Positions 10,561 through 20,326 of a stretch of DNA of 64,000 nt are shown in pieces (position 1 is the first letter of the stretch; every line of letters begins with the position of its first letter). The translations under genes and the position numbers were made by a program. The DNA comes from Acidobacteriota bacterium (GTDB lineage Bacteria; Acidobacteriota; UBA6911; RPQK01; JAJDTT01): the NCBI GenBank assembly GCA_965263035.1, contig OZ253580.1, forward strand, positions 960,001 through 1,024,000. Reading direction: 5' to 3'. The notes beneath the pieces were generated by a model. That model saw only the letters and a list, made by a program, of their open reading frames with translations, ran no database searches and was not told where the DNA came from.

Positions 10561-10852
10561 GCGACTTGAGTATCTTGGTGATTGTCGAGTGCCTGAGGGT
10601 CACCTCGAAACCTCGAGCCATCCGGGATTCGAGATTGATTATGGCCTTCGTCGGCAGAATTGCATAAATTATAAGGGCAGTCGTCGGCAAGTCAAGGAAC
10701 CCACGGCGAGGCCCTCAAGGGTTTGGCTATCGTTCTCAGCGGCGAAATCAAGAACCGCTATCCTTTCGTCCTAGGCAGTGGAGAGTACAACGGCGTTGCC
10801 CGCAAAGTCATGACGAATTGAGAATTCCGTGCTTTTTTTCCGGAGAAGAACG

Positions 10853-12646
10853 ATGCACAACCGACGAAGATTCTTGAGTAAGGCAGGCGCTCTCGCTGGC
10901 TTGGTCCCCGCCTCACTCAGCCAGAGCCTGCAAGGAACTGGGCAAACCCGGACCAAAGTGAAGCCGATCAAGAGACGACGGCGACGGATTGTCTGGAACA
11001 ACGACGGCAGCGACATGCTGCAGCCGGCATACGGCGGCGGAAAATGGCCGATCCCGATGAATTCCGTACAGGATTTTCTGGAGGGTACGCTCAAATGCGT
11101 GGAAGGCACTCAGGTCGACAGCATCTTCTATTGTGCCCACGTGAACGAGCCGGACTGGGAGATTCCCGCAAGGCACATTGAGGTTCTGGGGGCGAACCCG
11201 GTCAAGCACGTGGTGGATTTTGCCCACCACAACGGAATGGAGTTTTTCTACACCATCCGTATGAATGACGTTCACGCGGGACGCTACCCGCCCAAAGCCT
11301 CTTACTGGCCGCCCTTTCGGCTCAAGCATCCGGAACTGCTAATGGGTTATATCTCCCGCGAACACTGGGAGAAGAAAGTCACGCCCTGGGTCAAGCGTTT
11401 CATGGCCATCGAAAAGGAACGTTGGGAAAAGAAGCTTTACGATCCACAAAAGACAGTGGAATTGCGCCGGCTGGCCGAGGAGGAACATCCGCTCAAGGAC
11501 GTGTTCCAGCGCGACGGGGTGGCCTCGCGTGACCTGTGGTTCTGGGCAGGTTACGACTGGGCGCTCCCTCCCGTGCGAGCTCGTTACCTGGAAGTCGTCG
11601 AAGGCGCTTGCCAACGGTACGACCTCGAGGGCGTCGAACTCGACTGGTTGAGACACACCAGGTTTTTCAAGCTGGGCGAGGAACGCCGAAACATCCCCAT
11701 CATGAACGACTTCGTTCATCAGGTGCGCCAACGTCTGGACCACTACGCCCGAGAAAGAGGCCGTCCCATTTTGCTGGCGGTAAGAACTCCCGACACGATC
11801 GATGCGAGCTTGTCGATCGGATTGGATCCGGAGACGTGGGTCCGTGAAGGCTGGGTCGATCTCGTGATGGCCGGAACAGGCCTGATGCCGTTTTCAGTTC
11901 CCATGGACGAGTGGGTCGACCTCGGGGACCGTTACCACGTCCCGGTCTACGGATGCCTGGACCGCTTGTATGCCACGTTTCGCCCCGGCCGCCCCAAATT
12001 CGACATGCGGGACCCCGACATCGAAGGAGATGACGCATCGCACTACGATTGCGTTCATGCAGCTTGTCATCGCTTTTGGGAGGAGGGTGTAGACGGCATC
12101 TACTTGTACGATTGGCACACGCATCACGGCCCCACCGATCCCCGGGATTACGGTACCGTGCCACGGGTCGGTGAGCCCGGTCCTCTGGCGCGCCGAAACA
12201 AGCTCTATCGAATCGATACGGATTATTACTACTCCAGCGGCTCCATCGGGGACAGCTGCATGCCCCCTCAGCTGCCGAGAGCTTTCACCACTCAGGCGGG
12301 TCCTTCCAGTGATCGCTTCACTTTGCGGATTGCGGACGATCCTGGAGCCGTTGTTCGCGCGACCCTGCAAACCCGGTGGAAGCGGCCCGGGGACGCCAGT
12401 CGAGCCAGTTGGCAACTGAACGGGACACCTTTGTCAGACCCCCGGCCCTTGTCTGTCAAAGGGTATGGAACATCTTACGGGTTCGGGTTTCAGGAGGAGG
12501 CCGGTTGGAGCGCATTTGAAGTCTCCCCCCAAGTCTTGACAAGAGGAGATAACAAGCTGGAGATTGTGGTCCAGCCTCCTGGCGCCGGTGACCCGGCCAA
12601 GCCCGTCGAACTTCTCGAAATCCGCCTCTCGATCGGCTATTCCTGA
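10853..12646 (+). CDS. Tat-exported putative glycoside hydrolase (DUF187/GHL10-like TIM barrel plus C-terminal beta domain), paralogue 1
   Basis: MHNRRRFL Tat signal; WNNDGSD, IRMNDVH, EGVELDWLRH, DGIYLYDW motifs. Confidence 0.75.
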   Translation: MHNRRRFLSKAGALAGLVPASLSQSLQGTGQTRTKVKPIKRRRRRIVWNNDGSDMLQPAYGGGKWPIPMNSVQDFLEGTLKCVEGTQVDSIFYCAHVNEPDWEIPARHIEVLGANPVKHVVDFAHHNGMEFFYTIRMNDVHAGRYPPKASYWPPFRLKHPELLMGYISREHWEKKVTPWVKRFMAIEKERWEKKLYDPQKTVELRRLAEEEHPLKDVFQRDGVASRDLWFWAGYDWALPPVRARYLEVVEGACQRYDLEGVELDWLRHTRFFKLGEERRNIPIMNDFVHQVRQRLDHYARERGRPILLAVRTPDTIDASLSIGLDPETWVREGWVDLVMAGTGLMPFSVPMDEWVDLGDRYHVPVYGCLDRLYATFRPGRPKFDMRDPDIEGDDASHYDCVHAACHRFWEEGVDGIYLYDWHTHHGPTDPRDYGTVPRVGEPGPLARRNKLYRIDTDYYYSSGSIGDSCMPPQLPRAFTTQAGPSSDRFTLRIADDPGAVVRATLQTRWKRPGDASRASWQLNGTPLSDPRPLSVKGYGTSYGFGFQEEAGWSAFEVSPQVLTRGDNKLEIVVQPPGAGDPAKPVELLEIRLSIGYS

Positions 12647-13000
12647 GCTTCTGTCCCAGATGCGGAACACTGAACTTGGGGAAAGGCAGTTATCGAGCGG
12701 TTGGTGACTCGTGAGAGCATTGACCGCTTGCCGCCGGTAGAGAGAGTTATGCTCAAACCCTCTTCAATTTGTGTGGCAATCCTTGTCGCCGTATCCCTGG
12801 TGTGGGCAGGGTCGCGAGATAAGGCCGTTCTCTTCGTGAATGAAATCATGACCGCCAGTGCCTTTACCAATGGGGCAATGGATGAAGATGGAGATTTTCA
12901 AGGCTGGATCGAACTCTACAACGGCGGAGAGAGTGCGATCGACCTGACTGGCTATTACCTTTCCAATGGGGATTATATCCCAAAGTCACAATTCGACCGG

Positions 13001-13180
13001 TCATTCGGTCTTGAACTTGAAGGGCCGAAGGAATGCCTTGCGGGCCTGTTGGAGAGACGATCCAGGCATATCAACCTCTTCCCTCAGTTCTTTGCGATTC
13101 GGTTGGTAGGACCGCTTGGGAAGGCGTATTGTGGCGGGTTTCTGTATCGTGTGGGCGGATCTTTGTTGACGGCGCTTCAT
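13001..13180 (-). CDS. Small basic 'SYQP' passenger protein of IS1595 copy 1 (59 aa; absent from the ORF track)
   Basis: MKRRQQRSAHTIQKPATIRLPKRSYQPNRKELREEVDMPGSSLQQARKAFLRPFKFKTE; similar in sequence and position to 15926-16141 and 16234-16416. Confidence 0.7.
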   Translation of the reverse strand: MKRRQQRSAHTIQKPATIRLPKRSYQPNRKELREEVDMPGSSLQQARKAFLRPFKFKTE

Positions 13181-13446
13181 GGGAGATCAGTCTCGCTCTT
13201 TTGCAGCCAAGGGCATTCCCCGCGAGAACCTGGGACCCCGTGTGGACACTATTCGATCCTTCCTGGGGAGGACACGTTCCTCCAGGTTTATGGCCGCCTT
13301 GGTATTCACGAAGTGGTGGTCCCGGCTGAACCTGCACGCAAAAATCTCATCACGCATCTCTTGGATCGGTTCAGGGACTCTGTTCTCGGCAGCAAGGGAT
13401 GATCTCGACAGGGTTCCTCCTTTCAGATCCAATCCAATCTGAGTAG

Positions 13447-13482
13447 AGGAACCGAGAGACTTTGGCGGGTGGCTCGGTTCCT
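13447..13482. other. Hairpin between the transposase and passenger ORFs of IS1595 copy 1
   Basis: Perfect 10-bp inverted repeat AGGAACCGAG/CTCGGTTCCT with a 16-nt spacer. Confidence 0.6.
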
Positions 13483-13519
13483 AACCTGATCTCAGTCTTA
13501 CCGATCCGGCTTTTTCAAG

Positions 13520-14515
13520 TCAACCCACTGCTGGTCTGGCTCCACTGTCCAGTCCGTTGTCTGCAATAAGTTCCGGGTACTTGATGCGCTTGCCGATCAT
13601 CCCGACAGCGACCATTCCCATCTGGTCTTCCGTGTCCGCTTCGCGGATGTTGTGACGGCCCGAGAATTCATTGACGTATTGGTGTAGGTGCTTGGGGCTC
13701 AGCTTGTGGAAGGTGCCCATGTGCGCCCTTTTCAGCATGGACCAAAAGCTCTCCACGCCATTGGTGTGAGCCTTGCCCCGGACGTATTCGCCAACTGAAT
13801 GCCGCACGGTTTCGTGGTTCGGGAGAGCGTGGTAAGTCAGGGCATCGTCCGTGTAGATCTTGGCGCCGGGTTCCATCTGCTCCATGATGAAGCGGCTCAT
13901 GGTTTCGCTCTTGACATTGGGGACAACTCTGGCAGAAACCTGCTTCGTGGGTCGGTCTTTGATGCCCGCCACAGCCGTCTTTCCCACAGATCCTCGACCT
14001 GTCAATTGCTTCCTCTTGGCCTTTGGCATGTTCTTCCGCTTACCGCCCCTATAGGTCTCATCAGCCTCTACCGGACCTTGAAACGTCCCGGTGCCGATCT
14101 CCGCGGCCTTGCGGAGCCGAGCCAGCATGAACCAAGCGGCTTTCTGGCCGATGCCCAGCTCTCGGTGCAGCTTCATGGAAGAAATGCCCTTGATGTTGGT
14201 GGTGAAGAGATAGCTGCCTACGGCCCAGACGCGATAAGGGAGCTTGGTGCTTTCCATGACCGTTCCCTTGCGGATGGAGAACATAGGCCGCTTTGGACAG
14301 TCCCGGCAACGGTGGGTCATGGTCTTGTGCTTGATGCCACTTTGGACGTTGAATGATCCGCAGTTGGGGCAGAACGGACCATCCGGCCAAACCTGCTCTT
14401 CCAGCCACTTTAAGGCCGCTTCGTCGTCCCGGAACTTGTCCGCAACTTGCAGCAGAGTGAGTCCTTTTCGGTGGGCTTTCCCAGGCGCTTTCTTCATCCC
14501 GTTTCCCTCTCTCAT
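13520..14515 (-). CDS. IS1595-family transposase (intact)
   Basis: Zn ribbon CPNCG...CRDC, HTH (SSMKLHRELG), catalytic VEADETY/IYTDD/HTNGVESFW. Confidence 0.95.
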   Translation of the reverse strand: MREGNGMKKAPGKAHRKGLTLLQVADKFRDDEAALKWLEEQVWPDGPFCPNCGSFNVQSGIKHKTMTHRCRDCPKRPMFSIRKGTVMESTKLPYRVWAVGSYLFTTNIKGISSMKLHRELGIGQKAAWFMLARLRKAAEIGTGTFQGPVEADETYRGGKRKNMPKAKRKQLTGRGSVGKTAVAGIKDRPTKQVSARVVPNVKSETMSRFIMEQMEPGAKIYTDDALTYHALPNHETVRHSVGEYVRGKAHTNGVESFWSMLKRAHMGTFHKLSPKHLHQYVNEFSGRHNIREADTEDQMGMVAVGMIGKRIKYPELIADNGLDSGARPAVG

Positions 14516-14855
14516 TGTGACTAAATAGTAACACGGAGGGGTGACAGAATCAAGCGTTTACGGAAGGAAATTGTGACTTTGGGATATAATCCCCTTTCCA
14601 ATGATCCTCAACAGCCCAGGAGGTGGAGATTCCCGGACGGCCGCGTTTCTCCTCAGGAGTTTCTGATGGTCTGGACGTCCGCCAAGAACAAGGTCGGAGC
14701 AAACGGAGAGCTGCACACCAATTTTCAACTGTCGGGTGCGGAGCCGGTTCTTCTCACCGCCCCTGACGGAAACACATTGATCGACTCGCTCCAGGCCCCG
14801 TCAGAAATCGACCGGGACGAATCCTACGGAAGACATCCTGACGGGCACGAGGATC

Positions 14856-15674
14856 TACTGTCCCTACTGCGGGGCCACCAATGTCCAGATTGGATGCAAG
14901 CATAAGACGATGCCGTTTCGTTGCCGTGAGAAGGAATGCGGAAAGCATTTCAGCATCAAGACCGGGACCTTCATGCAGTCAAGCAAGATCGGCTATCAGA
15001 ACTGGCTCTACGCCTTCTACCTGTTCGCCACGAATCTGAAGAGTGTTTCCAGCATGAAGCTCCACCGCGAGCTGGGCATCACGCAGAAGTCAGCCTGGCA
15101 CCTGGCACACCGGATTCGCCAGGCCTGGAACTTGGACCCGGAGGAGAGATTTTGGGGTCCGGTCGAGGTGGATGAGACTTGGTTTGGTGGCAAGCGGAAG
15201 AACATGCCGAAGAAGAAGCGGTCTCAGTTGAAGGGGCGCGGCCCGGTTGGGAATACCGCTGTCGTGGGCGTGAAAGACCGGAAGACCAACCGCGTGTCGG
15301 CTCAGGTTGTCGAGGACACGACCCAGGAGACACTCCAGGGATTCGTCCAGGATCGGATCGACCCGGACGCGGCGGTCTACACGGACGATTCCTCCTCCAA
15401 TGCATCGCTGGACAATCATGAGTCCGTCCGTCATTCCCAGTTGGAATACGTTCGGGGTTCGGTTCACACCAACGGCGTTGAGTCCTTCTGGTCGATGTTG
15501 AAACGGGCGTATATGGGCACCTTCCACCGGCTGTCAGAGCGTCATCTTCACCGCTACGTCGGCGAGTTCGCAGGACGCCACAATATGCGGGAACTGGGAA
15601 CGCTGGCTCAGATGTCTCTGGTCGCTGATCGGGCCATTGGGCAGCGGCTCCGGTACCAGGATTTGGTCAGTTGA
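14856..15674 (+). pseudogene. IS1595-family transposase lacking its N-terminal ~40 aa
   Basis: YCPYCG...RCREKEC, VEVDETW, VYTDD, HTNGVESFW; the start region present in copies 1 and 3 is missing. Confidence 0.85.
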
Positions 15675-15935
15675 ACCGGACTGAGGTGGCGGATTCCAGT
15701 GCCATCACATTCGTCTCGATAGACGAAATGACTACCTTCTCGGTCTTGGCATCAGGCCGAGTGAAATCCTGTTCAACGTCTGGACCAAGGTCGAGGTCTC
15801 AGAGCAACAAGCCGGGCGTCTTGTGAGGATGGCGGAAGGACGATCCGTTACCTTCAAGCTCACGAAGCGACCTGAGCAAATGCATCCGATCGAAGACCTT
15901 CCCCGCTGGGCAATAGGGCTGGAAAATGAGCAATA
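15671..15935 (+). pseudogene. Truncated cargo gene remnant of IS1595 copy 2 (possibly nuclease-like)
   Basis: TTG overlaps the transposase stop. After a frame break it reads GGGFQCHHIRLDRRNDYLLGLGIRPSEILFNVWTK...LVRMAEGRSVTFKLTKR...LENEQ*, overlapping the next ATG. The nuclease assignment is only from recalled resemblance. Confidence 0.45.
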
Positions 15936-16141
15936 GGAAGTCCACAGTTCGCAAGAATCCGAAATCCAGAACCGTAGAACTGGTCCATTCTTCTTACCAG
16001 CCGACGAAGGCGGAGAAGGAAGAGGAGTTCAATTTGAAGGTGCCGGGAGAGACCCCATTAGATCGAATGGGCAAGCTGGCGCGGGCAGTCCTCCGTCCCG
16101 TCAAACCCCGGTGGATCAGAAAGCCCAGGAACCGTCGTTAA
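15926..16141 (+). CDS. Small basic 'SYQP' passenger protein of IS1595 copy 2 (71 aa)
   Basis: TVELVHSSYQPTKAE...LARAVLRPV..RWI..PRNRR; the stop lies 8 nt before the TIR. Confidence 0.75.
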   Translation: MSNRKSTVRKNPKSRTVELVHSSYQPTKAEKEEEFNLKVPGETPLDRMGKLARAVLRPVKPRWIRKPRNRR

Positions 16142-16233
16142 TGCTTGCGTTTCGGGACTTTCGTATATAATCCCCAATAGAAGGGCACTACAAGGAAATG
16201 GGGATTATATACGAAAGTGCCGAAACCTGAGCA

Positions 16234-16416
16234 TTAACGCCGGTTCCGTGGCCGGTCTATCCATCTGATATTCACGGGCTGGACCAATGCACGGGCCAGC
16301 TCCTCGAAGTCTGCTTCCACGCGCATATCCTGTTCCAGTTCGGCCTTGGTCGGTTGGTAGGAATCCTTGACCAGTTCGATGGTGGGATGTTGGGGATTGT
16401 GTCTGGGTTTCTTCAT
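16234..16416 (-). CDS. Small basic 'SYQP' passenger protein of IS1595 copy 3 (60 aa)
   Basis: TIELVKDSYQPTKAELEQDMRVEADFEELARALVQPVNIRWIDRPRNRR; its ATG overlaps the cargo stop (ATGA). Confidence 0.75.
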   Translation of the reverse strand: MKKPRHNPQHPTIELVKDSYQPTKAELEQDMRVEADFEELARALVQPVNIRWIDRPRNRR

Positions 16417-16435
16417 GCGGCCCTCGGCATCCTAG

Positions 16436-18200
16436 CCCGGATATCTCATCAGAAAGATTGATAAAGGCCGCGTTTTCTGCTATAAGTGTTGTGTAATCAA
16501 TAACTTACAAAGCAGAAGGGACGCGACCTTATGACCGCAGAGTGTACCAGAATAAAGCTCAGATTTCAGGGCCTGGACGGACGGGATGTCGTGGGCCGGT
16601 TCGACGGCGGCGAGATCACCTCCGACGCCGGTGGCGTGCTCCTGCGCGAAGTGGAGCAGCGGACCCGGATTCTGGGTCGTCTGAGCGAATGCTTCACCGA
16701 CTATCGAGACTCGGATCGAGTCGAACACCCGGTGGAGGCGTTGATCAAACAGCGGGTGCTGGGGCTGTGCCTGGGCTACGAGGACCTCAACGACCACGAC
16801 GAGTTGTGCCGGGACCGGCTCTTGGCGCTGTTGTGTGATCGAGATGATCTGACGGGGGAGTTCCGGCGCGTGGAGTCGGATCGAGGCAAGCCGCTGGCAG
16901 GCAAGAGCACCCTGAACCGACTGGAGCGGACTCCGTTGGAGGGACCGGAGGGCGCGTACAAGAAGATCGTGGCCGACCCGGCGGGGATGGACGAGCTGCT
17001 GCTGGAGGTGTTTGTGGAAGCGCATCCGGAGCCCCCGGAGGAGGTGATCCTGGATGTAGACGCCACGGACGATCCGCTGCATGGGAAGCAGGAGGGACGG
17101 TTCTTCCACGGCTATTACAAACGCTACTGCTACCTGCCGCTGTACGTCTTCTGTGGGGAACACCTGTTGCGTGCGCGGCTGCGCACGGCGGATCGAGGCG
17201 CGGCCCACGGGGTGGTGGCGGAGTTGGAACCAATCGTGAGGCGGCTGCGTGAAGCGTGGCCCCAGGTGCGGATCACGGTTCGAGGGGACAGTGCCTTCTC
17301 CAACGACGAGTTGATGGTCTGGTGCGAGAAGGAAGGGATCGATTACGTCCTGGGGTTGGCGCAGAACGATCGGCTGAAGCGGAGGATCGCGACCCGGATG
17401 GAGACCGTCCGGCAGTTGCAGCGGGCGATCGGGAAGGCCGTGAGGCAGTTCCAGGAACTGCGCTATCAGACGCACAAGAGTTGGTCGTGCGAGCGCCGGG
17501 TGGTGGCGAAGGTGGAGCACCTGCCCCGGGGAAAGAACCCGCGATTCATCGTGACTTCGGTCCCGGTCCAGGAATGCGATGGGCGAAGATTGTACGAGGA
17601 GGTCTACTGCGCGCGGGGAGACATGGAGAATCGGATAAAGGAACAGCAGATGGGTCTGTTTGCGGACCGCACGTCGACCCGGAAGCTGGCGGGGAATCAA
17701 CTGCGGTTGTATTTCTCGGCATTCGCCTACGTGATGATGGAGACGTTGCGACGGGTGGGGCTGGCGGGGACGAAGCTGGCGCGGGCGCAGAGCTGGACCC
17801 TGCGGGTGAGATTGCTGAAGATCGGGGCACAGGTCCGGATCACCAGCCGCAAGGTCTGGTTGTCCTTTTCCGAGAGCTATCCGTATGCGGCGCTGTTGAG
17901 GACGGCTCTGACGCAAGTGCAAGCCCTCCCGCTTCGCTGTTAGCAACGGATGGAAAGAACTCTTTGGACGATGGCGACTTGGGAGTCCCCAGGATGGACT
18001 GCGCCCCGGAGTGGGCACCGGGTCGAGAGTCGTCGCTCAGAAGCGCAGGATGGGCGTCAAAAGGCTCTGGAGAAGCGCTGCATCTGGCCGTTGGTCGGCA
18101 CGTTCGAGCACGAAAACTGCCTCTTGAACTCGTATGGATAAAGAATCACCCAGACGACGGTTCAACTTCCGTTTATTGTTCTACTGATGAGAAATGCAGG
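16436..18200 (+). mobile_element. IS1380-family element, copy 1 (1765 bp)
   Basis: Imperfect TIRs CCCGGATATCTCATCAG / CCTGCATTTCTCATCAG; CTAG duplicated at 16432-16435 and 18201-18204. Confidence 0.95.
16531..17943 (+). CDS. IS1380-family transposase (intact)
   Basis: FDGGEITSDAG, GYEDLNDHD, LDVDATDDPLHGKQEG, RGDSAF, YCARGDMENRIKE. Confidence 0.95.
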   Translation: MTAECTRIKLRFQGLDGRDVVGRFDGGEITSDAGGVLLREVEQRTRILGRLSECFTDYRDSDRVEHPVEALIKQRVLGLCLGYEDLNDHDELCRDRLLALLCDRDDLTGEFRRVESDRGKPLAGKSTLNRLERTPLEGPEGAYKKIVADPAGMDELLLEVFVEAHPEPPEEVILDVDATDDPLHGKQEGRFFHGYYKRYCYLPLYVFCGEHLLRARLRTADRGAAHGVVAELEPIVRRLREAWPQVRITVRGDSAFSNDELMVWCEKEGIDYVLGLAQNDRLKRRIATRMETVRQLQRAIGKAVRQFQELRYQTHKSWSCERRVVAKVEHLPRGKNPRFIVTSVPVQECDGRRLYEEVYCARGDMENRIKEQQMGLFADRTSTRKLAGNQLRLYFSAFAYVMMETLRRVGLAGTKLARAQSWTLRVRLLKIGAQVRITSRKVWLSFSESYPYAALLRTALTQVQALPLRC

Positions 18201-18683
18201 CTAGGTTGCTTCCCCTCAAAGTAGTCTTCCGGCGTGTAGATTTGAATCTTGGGCAGGTCCATGAAGCGTCCGGCGTTGACGGCGGCATTTCTCATGCCGT
18301 TGGTCACTCTGTCTCGAAAGCAGGTGAAGATGCCGAGATCAGCTCCGGCCTGTTGACGTGCGCCGTTGAAGGCTTGGACGTGTCCGGGATTGGTAGAGCC
18401 GCCTTTGACCTGAGAAACGATGTCAATGAACCGGCCCTTGCGGATCGGGAGCCGTCCCACGCCGTCAATTCCGCCATCCCGTCTCTGGATTCGGTTCGGC
18501 TCCATACCGTCCACCAGAGCAGCAGCCCACCTCTCAAACCGGAATTTATCGATGCCGGCAAGCTCCTGAGCGTGTGTGATGGTATGGGGAAGGCCAATGT
18601 ATTGGGTGTGTTCCCAACGGATTCATCCGGGACATCCTCCCGCATGACTTCAAGGTGGTCTCCAAAGATCAGTCGATTTTCGT

Positions 18684-19634
18684 TCAACCCACCAAATCCT
18701 TGTAACGCAGCCGCTTTCCCACCATCCGGTCAGCGACCAGGGCCATTTGATCCAACGTGTCCATGCGCCTTAGGTTGTGACGTGCGGCAAACTCTCCAAC
18801 GTATCGGTCGGTGTGCTGTTCCGAGAAGTGGTGAAAGGTTCCGTGGTAACTCCGCTTCAACATGGACCAGAATGATTCGGCTCCGTTGGTGTGGCAGTTG
18901 CCTTTGACGTACTCCTGAAGAGAATGTCTGACCGTCTCGTGATGGACAAGCCGGCCGTAAGAGGTTGAATCGTCCGTGTAGATCTTGGCATCTTCTCCCA
19001 CGTGCTCCAAGACGAAACGGGAGAGGGTTTCAGACTTGGTGTCAGGGACGACTCGGGCCGACACTTGGTTGGAGGGGCGATCTTTGACGGCAGCCACGGC
19101 CGTCTTTCCAACGGCTCCACGTCCCTCCAGTTTGGCGCGTTTGGCCTTCGGCATATGCTTCCGCTTTCCGCCGAGATACGCCTCGTCAGCCTCGACCGGG
19201 CCGGAGAACAGGGCCATTCCAGTCAGGTTCAGACCTTTCCGTATCCGGTGAGCAAGGTGCCAAGCCGTCTTCTGTGTTACGTCCAGGTCACGATGCAGCT
19301 TCATGGAGGAAACGCTCTTGAGGCTGGTAGTAAGGAGGTAGGTCGCAAGCAACCAAGTCTGATAGCCGAGTTTGGAGGACTGCATAACCGTCCCGACCCG
19401 GACGCTGAACCGCTTGCCGCAATCGCGGCAACGATACGGCATGGAAGGATGCTTGGCTCCGGTCTGGACGTTGGTGGAGCCGCAATGGACGCAACAGACT
19501 TCCTCCGGCCACCGCTGCTTTATGAACCATTCCTCAGCGGCTTTATCGTCGGGAAATCTCTTGAAGAATCCGCGAAGTGAAAGTCCCTCTCGGAACGCCT
19601 TGCCGGGTGCCTTGTTCCGTGTCTCGTAACTCAT
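18684..19634 (-). CDS. IS1595-family transposase (intact), copy 3
   Basis: ATG 19634 after AGGAGG; CVHCG...CRDC, VEADEAY, IYTDD, HTNGAESFW. Confidence 0.95.
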   Translation of the reverse strand: MSYETRNKAPGKAFREGLSLRGFFKRFPDDKAAEEWFIKQRWPEEVCCVHCGSTNVQTGAKHPSMPYRCRDCGKRFSVRVGTVMQSSKLGYQTWLLATYLLTTSLKSVSSMKLHRDLDVTQKTAWHLAHRIRKGLNLTGMALFSGPVEADEAYLGGKRKHMPKAKRAKLEGRGAVGKTAVAAVKDRPSNQVSARVVPDTKSETLSRFVLEHVGEDAKIYTDDSTSYGRLVHHETVRHSLQEYVKGNCHTNGAESFWSMLKRSYHGTFHHFSEQHTDRYVGEFAARHNLRRMDTLDQMALVADRMVGKRLRYKDLVG

Positions 19635-20326
19635 TGCATCCTCCTGACTTACAAGACATATTCTATAGGAAAGTACCGGCATTATCAACCCCTACGGGCA
19701 ACTTTTTCGGCACTTTCGTATATAATCCCCAAGGAAATCCTAGCACCATTAGCACGCAGAAAGGACGAGGATAGCTGAGCAAGTTGACGAGATTCGGCGA
19801 TAATTCTTCAGCCAGCCGCAACGGCCCTCGCGAGCCCAGCCTATTGGCGGCGGTTATCCCGGGTCGACAAACCAGAATTCCGAGAGTTCTCACGCTGAAG
19901 CTGACGGCTACTTCAAATATGGAGGGCCAGTGCACCACGCCGCGGTCAGCTCCCAGAAATCTCCTCGCCTCTTCAGCCCGATATTTTGTCCCTGAGTGCC
20001 GCCGTATTTCGCGGTAACTCCCTCGTATCTGGCTCCTATCTGGCTGGTGTCTTTTTCTCTGTCCAAGACATTAACATTCGATGAATCAGCAACCTGAGTG
20101 CAGGCTCTGCGGAACGAATCTTCCAAATTTTGACCCAGCGCAGGCATATTCATGTCTCCCTGCCCTCAACCGTCTCTCGCCGGCTGCCTTTTGCCCGACC
20201 GCGCCGCGCTCCGGAAGCCAGTATGGTCAGCCCGGCTGCCCGTTTCAGAAACGTTCGTCGATTTCGCATTTCGTCCGCTCCAATCACCAGGGGAGCTTTT
20301 ACACAAGACCACGGCCAGCTCCCCGG

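Follow-up and report, generated by a model that had tools for sequence, protein, structure and literature searches.

Insertion sequences of the IS1595 family are treated as one-gene elements, some of them with passengers, and family members carrying passenger genes are already known, presumably those that ISfinder names 'ISNwi1+'. The title of the 2009 family paper by Siguier, Gagnevin and Chandler reportedly holds IS1 to be closest to IS1595, and we know of no biochemical study or solved structure of an IS1595-family element. The window described here, meaning the whole 64,000-nucleotide stretch of DNA that was analysed (G000:C1:960001-1024000, G000 being the window's own genome; Acidobacteriota bacterium, GenBank contig OZ253580.1), contains three mutually diverged IS1595-family elements, all inside positions 12968–19730, each of which closes with a small open reading frame (ORF) bearing an SYQP motif beside the right terminal inverted repeat (TIR). 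This SYQP ORF is a real, widespread and selected backbone gene of an IS1595 clade. Its product is possibly a dedicated accessory protein of that clade that docks on the transposase, and we tentatively favour a positive subunit that would aid recognition or holding of the TIRs.

Known passenger-bearing IS1595 elements (ISNwi1+, transporter IS) resemble those of the window in transposase family, 8-bp duplications and GGGGATTAT TIRs, and also in having extra genes, methylases included, between the transposase gene and the right end; we know of no record among them of one small terminal gene that stays constant while the rest varies, or of a product of such a gene that binds the transposase. Small element-encoded proteins are likewise found in IS1 (InsA) and IS911/IS3 (OrfA), where they modulate transposition through the ends or through the binding of DNA by the transposase. 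Both proteins contain the transposase's own N-terminal DNA-binding domain, being encoded in the 5' portion of the transposase region, whereas the SYQP ORF is a separate 3'-terminal gene without transposase similarity and its product is predicted to bind that domain rather than to copy it. An identity as an InsA/OrfA-type regulator was set aside on this separate 3'-end position and on the absence of transposases among the best 150 SYQP profile matches in 1.84 billion proteins. IS21 (IstA/IstB), Mu (A/B) and Tn7 (TnsB/TnsC) each encode a transposase-binding second protein that is required for transposition or directs it, but IstB, MuB and TnsC are AAA+ ATPases of at least 250 aa that bind target DNA, whereas the SYQP protein has ~60 aa and no nucleotide-binding motif.

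Controller (C) proteins of restriction-modification (R-M) systems are also small and encoded with R-M genes. They possess a helix-turn-helix (HTH), are encoded ahead of the endonuclease and are confined to R-M systems. The SYQP protein, by contrast, matches no HTH, and its gene invariably comes last and is retained where R-M genes are absent. A controller identity was rejected on the lack of any Pfam or NCBIfam match, the constant last position and the presence of the gene in cargo-less elements; a type II antitoxin was rejected on the varying upstream neighbour and the lack of a family or fold match.

Transposon-like R-M units inside inverted repeats and with 8-bp duplications were described by Furuta, Abe and Kobayashi (2010), including in Neisseria gonorrhoeae a unit with 26-bp repeats, a type IIG gene and a COG3677 transposase-like gene; the same excerpt of the article cites the 2009 paper on the IS1595 family for R-M systems and lone M genes with insertion sequences at their flanks (PMC2853133). 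The present elements are similar in holding R-M genes inside inverted repeats with 8-bp duplications. The excerpt does not settle what moves the units and makes no reference to a conserved small ORF at their end (PMC2853133), whereas in the present elements transposase, ends and a constant accessory gene are defined for cargo of many types. Neither a small terminal ORF of IS1595 elements nor a partner of the IS1595 transposase was found in the literature searched; ISfinder and the 2009 family paper lay outside that search, so an earlier mention is possible.

A selected terminal gene linked to IS1595 transposases

One genome per GTDB species was scanned with the pattern [VI]ELV[KR]x[STD]YQP, which returned 104 stretches, 95 of them confirmed and 80 kept. 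The 80 loci come from ~31 public metagenome-assembled genomes (MAGs; record names counted by eye), most of them Acidobacteriota; Binatia, Alphaproteobacteria and Gammaproteobacteria are represented once each, and two MAGs are unclassified. A co-oriented IS1595 transposase gene is located within 6 kb upstream in 70 of the 80 loci (gaps of 9–4950 nt), and a TIR-like end, defined by two or fewer mismatches to an 11-mer, within 150 nt past the stop in 71. Both are present at 64 loci and neither at 3; variant TIRs were recognised by eye in three further loci, and the ten loci without a transposase look truncated or disrupted by other insertions. In an even sample of the phylum the SYQP ORF was detected in 14 of 401 genomes, the window's genome included, and a transposase match at E≤1e-20 in 101 of the 401, a tally that takes in three genomes flagged unpublished (G024, G049, G152), on which nothing else reported here depends. 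Twenty-six SYQP loci of this sample, diverged subfamilies included, have a transposase and/or TIR in their 1.5-kb flanks in 21 cases and neither in 5. Within the window's genome the ORF occupies 14 of 17 transposase loci, with a different small terminal ORF at two more. Homologues are therefore overwhelmingly accompanied by a transposase and a TIR, as expected from the earlier note on this DNA, for which mostly unlinked homologues would have been the contrary outcome.

The family is large and carries no annotation. A profile of the four local variants recovered 457 protein clusters at E≤0.01, none with a Pfam domain or source name, and a 109-sequence profile searched against the 1.84 billion proteins yielded 607 representatives at E≤0.001 (102 at E≤1e-10). 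Nearly all of the 607 measure 45–160 aa, and the two longer matches inspected are read-through fusions with methylase or transposase fragments. Conservation is complete at Y, Q and P and reaches 90% or more at T, E, L, V, T, K, E, E, P, R, W, I, P, R and R. Searches of Pfam, NCBIfam, PADLOC and PHROGs gave no family match to the small ORF, the best PDB match stood at E 0.42 by sequence and E 3.1 by fold, the ESM Atlas returned 'hypothetical protein' clusters only, and tblastn against 72,556 plasmids found no match. The termini are strongly basic, and the isoelectric point (pI) is 9.4–11.5 in three of the four local variants.

Among 1326 pairs formed from 52 unique SYQP sequences, the proportion of nonsynonymous differences (pN) was below that of synonymous differences (pS) in 98.3%. 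The median ratio of nonsynonymous to synonymous substitution rates (dN/dS) over 545 pairs with dS 0.15–1.5 was 0.40, an upper estimate because synonymous sites are near saturation, and not near 1 as the earlier note had named for conservation of DNA alone. Invariant residues are written with four to five codons for Leu, Val, Pro and Arg and with two for Tyr and Gln. With pN below pS and this variety of synonymous codons, conservation acts on the protein and not on the DNA of the element end.

Between the transposase gene and the SYQP ORF lies a slot of variable content. Long co-oriented slot ORFs were sampled from 15 loci chosen by eye among 27 representatives, and R-M domains (methylase or endonuclease) were detected in 16 of 20 such ORFs, from 13 of the 15 loci. 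Their architectures comprise N6_N4 methylase-HNH and N6_N4 methylase-Mrr fusions, D12 methylases paired with a NotI-like or a SacI-like endonuclease, single-chain type IIG enzymes and lone methylases; the remaining slots hold genes of no known family or secondary insertions. Passenger genes, that is, non-transposition genes inside the TIRs, are thus present as R-M domains in the slots and as an Mrr remnant in element 3 of the window. Other elements are cargo-less and multicopy, with only ~92–104 nt between transposase and SYQP ORF (L081, L083, L091, L092, L094), and elements with no cargo or only remnants keep the SYQP ORF intact.

Seven pairs of elements were compared at 70–88% nucleotide identity in their shared parts. 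In six of them the two sequences are homologous from the left end to the vicinity of the transposase stop and again from a point 0–72 nt inside the small ORF, with unrelated interiors; the cargo of the seventh pair (L017/L069) is common to both. Distances between transposases and between small proteins are correlated across 26 elements (Mantel r 0.50, with 0 of 2000 permutations as high). The sharp boundaries, the cargo-less elements and these correlated distances indicate that the small gene belongs to the backbone and the cargo does not. The SYQP ORF starts with a 4-nt overlap on an upstream ORF of at least 80 aa in 20 of 54 unique ORFs and 0–15 nt away from it in 7 more. Overlapping stop and start codons in one gene string suggest that the transposase and the SYQP protein are made together, and from them we infer co-expression.

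The three elements of the window

Features of the three elements are as follows (positions in the window).

12968–14594, minus strand: element 1, a complete IS1595-family element of 1627 bp (from its TIR pair and the genome-wide TIR list)
13001–13180, minus strand: sm1, small ORF of 59 aa, stop 7 nt from the TIR
13181–13519, minus strand: slot of element 1, ~340 nt, with an 81-aa ORF (13187–13432) of no family match
13520–14515, minus strand: transposase 1, 331 aa, Zn ribbon and DDE_Tnp_IS1595 (Pfam/NCBIfam)
14849–16175, plus strand: element 2, a 5'-truncated copy (from alignment to an intact genomic copy)
14910–15674, plus strand: transposase 2, N-terminally truncated ORF of 254 aa (Pfam/NCBIfam)
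15926–16141, plus strand: sm2, small ORF of 71 aa, stop 8 nt from the right TIR (16150–16175)
16200–19730, minus strand: element 3, with complete ends (from its TIR pair and copy alignment)
16234–16416, minus strand: sm3, small ORF of 60 aa, stop 8 nt from the TIR (16200–16225)
16436–18200, plus strand: IS1380-family element in the slot of element 3 (NF033539 E 7.8e-116, PF13701, own TIR pair)
18173–18514, minus strand: cargo remnant of element 3, 113 aa, Mrr-type restriction-endonuclease domain (NA-iREase1 1.2e-7, Mrr_cat 9.5e-5)
18684–19688, minus strand: transposase 3, 334 aa, with a predicted Zn ribbon at ~66–95, three-helix HTH at 109–153 and DDE domain from ~165

All three transposases match DDE_Tnp_IS1595 (PF12762; E 1.5e-37 to 1.8e-36) and NF033547 (E 1e-50 to 1.1e-52), and transposases 1 and 3 also match the Zn ribbon PF12760; transposase 2 lacks its N-terminus. 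Pairwise identity among the three is 57–64%. D168, D239, E271 and K278 are invariant in the transposase alignment, and the element ends begin with GGGGATTAT. The features that define the IS1595 family, namely a Zn ribbon with a DDE domain, TIRs and 8-bp duplications, are all present, and other copies in the genome also have 8-bp duplications. The TIR start may place these elements in the ISNwi1 subgroup of ISfinder, defined by a TIR consensus beginning ggnnatTAT and a DDE(K) signature.

The three small ORFs are intact and co-oriented with their transposases at the positions and distances from the TIR first reported for them in the earlier note. The shared SYQP pattern described there also holds: L, SYQP, E, A and P are invariant in a 4-sequence alignment, and the family profile scores E 6.6e-14 to 1.7e-28 on the three ORFs. 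The weakest of these values belongs to sm1, a member of a divergent SYQP subfamily without the RWID...RNRR tail, of which a copy with 76% identity lies at G000 2908887-2909036.

Element 1 has TIRs of 26–29 nt, is flanked by the 8-bp duplication TTTCCAAT (12960–12967 and 14595–14602) and interrupts a lamin-tail-domain gene, the halves of which match LTD positions 4–43 and 49–106. Element 2 corresponds to positions 206–1531 of an intact 1531-bp copy (G000 4568193-4569723; 96% identity); as the first 205 nt are missing, it has neither the left TIR nor the first ~45 transposase codons. Element 3 has perfect 27-nt TIRs and the target duplication AAGGAAAT and consists of a 1762-bp element, present in 8 genomic copies with the same sm3 sequence in all, plus the IS1380-family insertion. 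The latter carries a transposase ORF of 470 aa (16531–17943) and lies 19 nt upstream of the sm3 start, separating sm3 from transposase 3 and the cargo remnant; a 4-nt overlap of the two flanking alignments suggests that it was inserted with a 4-bp duplication.

The remnant of element 3 aligns (E 2e-11) to residues 434–545 of a methylase-Mrr fusion, the 563-aa protein that L054 carries as cargo, and is a deletion remnant in that the match covers only the C-terminal Mrr part. An N-terminal methylase remnant spotted by eye in element 3 was dropped as it had no statistical support. Broken cargo had been claimed for both element 2 and element 3; the claim stands for element 3, but a Pfam search recognised nothing in the ~250-nt slot of element 2 or in that of element 1. 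The lamin-tail-domain gene lies in two pieces (12701–12967 and 14595–14848), parted by element 1, and the truncated element 2 subsequently cut it short. With three elements and a fourth insertion sequence nested within 7 kb, the region may be an insertion hot spot or a tolerated dead gene.

Predicted binding and possible role of the SYQP protein

An AlphaFold2 model of sm3 built from 109 sequences (predicted local distance difference test, pLDDT, 88.5) places strands at 12–16 and 49–53 and helices at 24–28 and 37–45. A ribbon-helix-helix reading guessed from sequence was discarded, as the second strand of the model pairs with the first and no ribbon-helix-helix dimer motif is formed. Co-folded with transposase 3, the sm3 protein scored 0.82 against 0.02 for the best of three controls; of 80 solved complexes 58 attain the mark used, as do 2 of 110 mismatched pairs, counts that hold only roughly because custom alignments were used. 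Runs agreed in at least 72% of contacts, with partner pLDDT of at least 75. The predicted interface involves transposase residues 35–36, 55–59, 67 and 96–158 and small-protein residues 11–50, with the basic tails 1–10 and 51–60 outside the confident contacts. On the model of transposase 3 (pLDDT 77.9; helices 48–59, 109–121, 128–135 and 139–153) it maps to the N-terminal helix 48–59, the edge of the Zn ribbon and the three helices ahead of the DDE domain.

PDB matches to the transposase included no solved IS1595 structure, the best fold matches being retroviral integrases and ISCth4 (E≥3.1e-4, template-modelling score TM≤0.30), and the PDB sequence search gave nothing below E 0.4; because no IS1595 structure has been solved, the pass is not the memory of a known complex. 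The co-fold with controls thus supports, as a prediction, binding of the SYQP protein to the Zn-ribbon/HTH module. Together with linkage, protein-level conservation, co-divergence with the transposase and swapped cargo, it supports the earlier proposal of a second component dedicated to the element, as opposed to random cargo. Among the functions then listed, a transposition regulator or cofactor fits best; an antitoxin or anti-restriction partner fits poorly, as cargo-less elements keep the ORF.

We propose the following tentative scheme for the accessory protein. Left TIR, transposase gene, variable slot, SYQP gene and right TIR would form one co-oriented gene string, often joined in cargo-bearing elements through overlapping stop and start codons. 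The ~60-aa protein would fold as a small beta-alpha-alpha-beta unit, with an acidic helical core that docks on the N-terminal Zn-ribbon/HTH module of the transposase and Lys/Arg-rich N- and C-terminal tails that remain outside the confident interface. As a positive subunit it would help the DNA-binding module to recognise or hold the AT-rich terminal repeats, perhaps with the tails contacting DNA. We favour this direction of effect because of the likely equal co-production of the two proteins and the free basic tails. A bolder version, which we consider doubtful, makes the SYQP protein an obligate second subunit of the IS1595 transposase and the bookend layout a cargo platform, mostly for whole R-M systems. 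The two movement genes would then lie at opposite ends of one string, and anything recombined between them would be expressed and moved along. If this were true, the clade would be a modular R-M shuttle driven by a two-component DDE transposase, for which no counterpart has been described in the IS1/IS1595 lineage.

Several observations weigh against a dedicated accessory role. No SYQP match occurs in about 12 of the ~22 sampled genomes in which close transposases were detected (E≤1e-113; tables read by eye), and several of these genomes have a different small ORF at the element end, with weak homology to SYQP. Elements made up of TnpB alone have similar TIRs and 8-bp duplications but neither the transposase nor the SYQP gene, so that the SYQP protein, if needed, must work in trans. 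No recognisable TIR lies within 75 nt in 6 of the 80 loci (L017, L049, L071, L075, L078, L082), which are exceptions to the abutting layout, and ~1.7 kb follow the small ORF in L143 (G000:C1:2907203-2913185), breaking it likewise. The binding is predicted, from custom alignments, and its contacts on the conserved third HTH helix (139–153) fit masking of the DNA surface, that is inhibition, as well as co-operation. Eight metatranscriptome runs from two studies contain 59–83% of sampled words of the 1762-bp element, and contigs from RNA libraries cover the small ORF (X1 record 1, X5 record 15, X8 records 22 and 23), but with possible DNA carry-over these indicate presence only, and not transcription, strand or level.

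The third-helix contacts and the acidic contact surface keep alive the view that the SYQP protein is a built-in inhibitor. Its acidic helices would cover the transposase HTH and restrain transposition, perhaps until degradation or dilution removes the small protein. The predicted interface indeed includes the third HTH helix and the linker 146–158 with the conserved Q139, W143, H147, R148 and R150, the contacting peptide residues 26–37 are rich in Glu and Asp, and self-limiting regulators are common in insertion sequences (IS1 InsA, the Tn5 inhibitor). Coupled genes, however, suggest roughly equal amounts of the two proteins, so a tight inhibitor would silence the element, yet there are 8 copies in the window's genome and at least 20 loci in one MAG; the free basic tails would also be left without a role. 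We regard inhibition as unlikely. Service to the cargo, as controller, anti-restriction factor or antitoxin-like partner of the R-M genes in the slot, would account for the prevalence of R-M domains of at least five architectures and for the frequent translational coupling of the ORF to the last cargo gene. Such a role is improbable, since the gene persists where cargo is absent, the cargo belongs to unrelated types and the protein has no trait of a controller or antitoxin. Elements with no cargo or with remnants retain an intact ORF and multiply, and one protein would have to serve HNH, Mrr, NotI-like, SacI-like and type IIG enzymes. The protein has no HTH and matches no controller, antitoxin or defence family, its ORF always follows the endonuclease gene and never precedes it, and it diverges with the transposase while the cargo is swapped.

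The strongly basic termini, the high pI of three of the four local variants, the location next to the TIR and the lack of a known fold would also suit a small nucleic-acid-binding protein unrelated to the transposase, acting on host DNA or RNA or shielding the element end from outside transcription. The co-fold with its controls and the co-divergence point instead to the transposase, and nothing else favours a host-directed role, which we judge very improbable. It is conceivable that no functional protein is made and that the frame is kept open by DNA constraints, for the ORF falls within the terminal ~220 nt, a possible place for transposase-binding sites. This explanation is largely refuted and has the slightest chance of all: pN is below pS in nearly all pairs, invariant residues use 2–5 synonymous codons, the frame is kept in 607 diverged representatives, the fold model is confident, and elements with similar TIRs that lack such a sequence have inserted with 8-bp duplications.

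If a constant small protein under selection does bind the transposase, it would change the annotation of IS1595 elements, in which ORFs of ~60 aa are routinely missed, and also the reconstitution of IS1595 transposition. The modular order of transposase, slot and small gene offers a concrete vehicle for the long-noted mobility of R-M systems, and a YQP peptide beside a GGGGATTAT-type end could serve as a simple marker for such cargo in metagenomes.

Related elements and occurrence in public runs

Sixteen SYQP-less loci were inspected, and several have another small basic ORF at the same place with a common helix motif. The alternative terminal ORF encodes 42–57 aa, is basic and has an 'ATPEEVAR'-like helix (L126, L129, L130, L131, L136, L138); it also occurs in G000:C1:54343-55686 (L141:77-235, minus strand). 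An hhalign comparison of the SYQP family with this class was weak (probability 29.6%, E 5.7e-4 over 18 columns). Possession of a small ORF at the element end may be general in the IS1595 clade.

The TnpB-only elements of the window's genome are 1244–1379 bp long (G000:C1:1310799-1312042, locus L142; 1946003-1947246; 2600571-2601949). Their TnpB-like gene encodes 391 aa (Pfam Cas12f1-like_TNB 5.9e-26, OrfB_IS605 3.2e-18), and they have IS1595-type TIRs (GGGGATTATAT / GGGGCTTATAT...) and 8-bp duplications (ATATTCAT, TATTTTAT, AAACGAAT). These elements look like non-autonomous IS1595 derivatives that carry TnpB and are mobilised in trans, an association that we do not know from the literature.

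L143 is a 5983-bp relative of element 1 (transposase 88% identical) without a target duplication. Its slot contains opposite-strand ORFs, one with a HIRAN domain (4.3e-8), and three ORFs of no known family (122, 206 and 130 aa) lie between its small ORF and the TIR.

Just upstream of the three elements, a 605-aa ORF (window 10829–12646) has an N-terminal twin-arginine-like signal (RRRFLSKAGALAGL). Near-identical copies of the 1762-bp element (L004:1-1900) were found in 18 public runs from 8 studies, labelled as sponge metagenome and several coded organisms. Because such copies occur in sponge-metagenome runs, the host is probably a sponge-associated acidobacterium.

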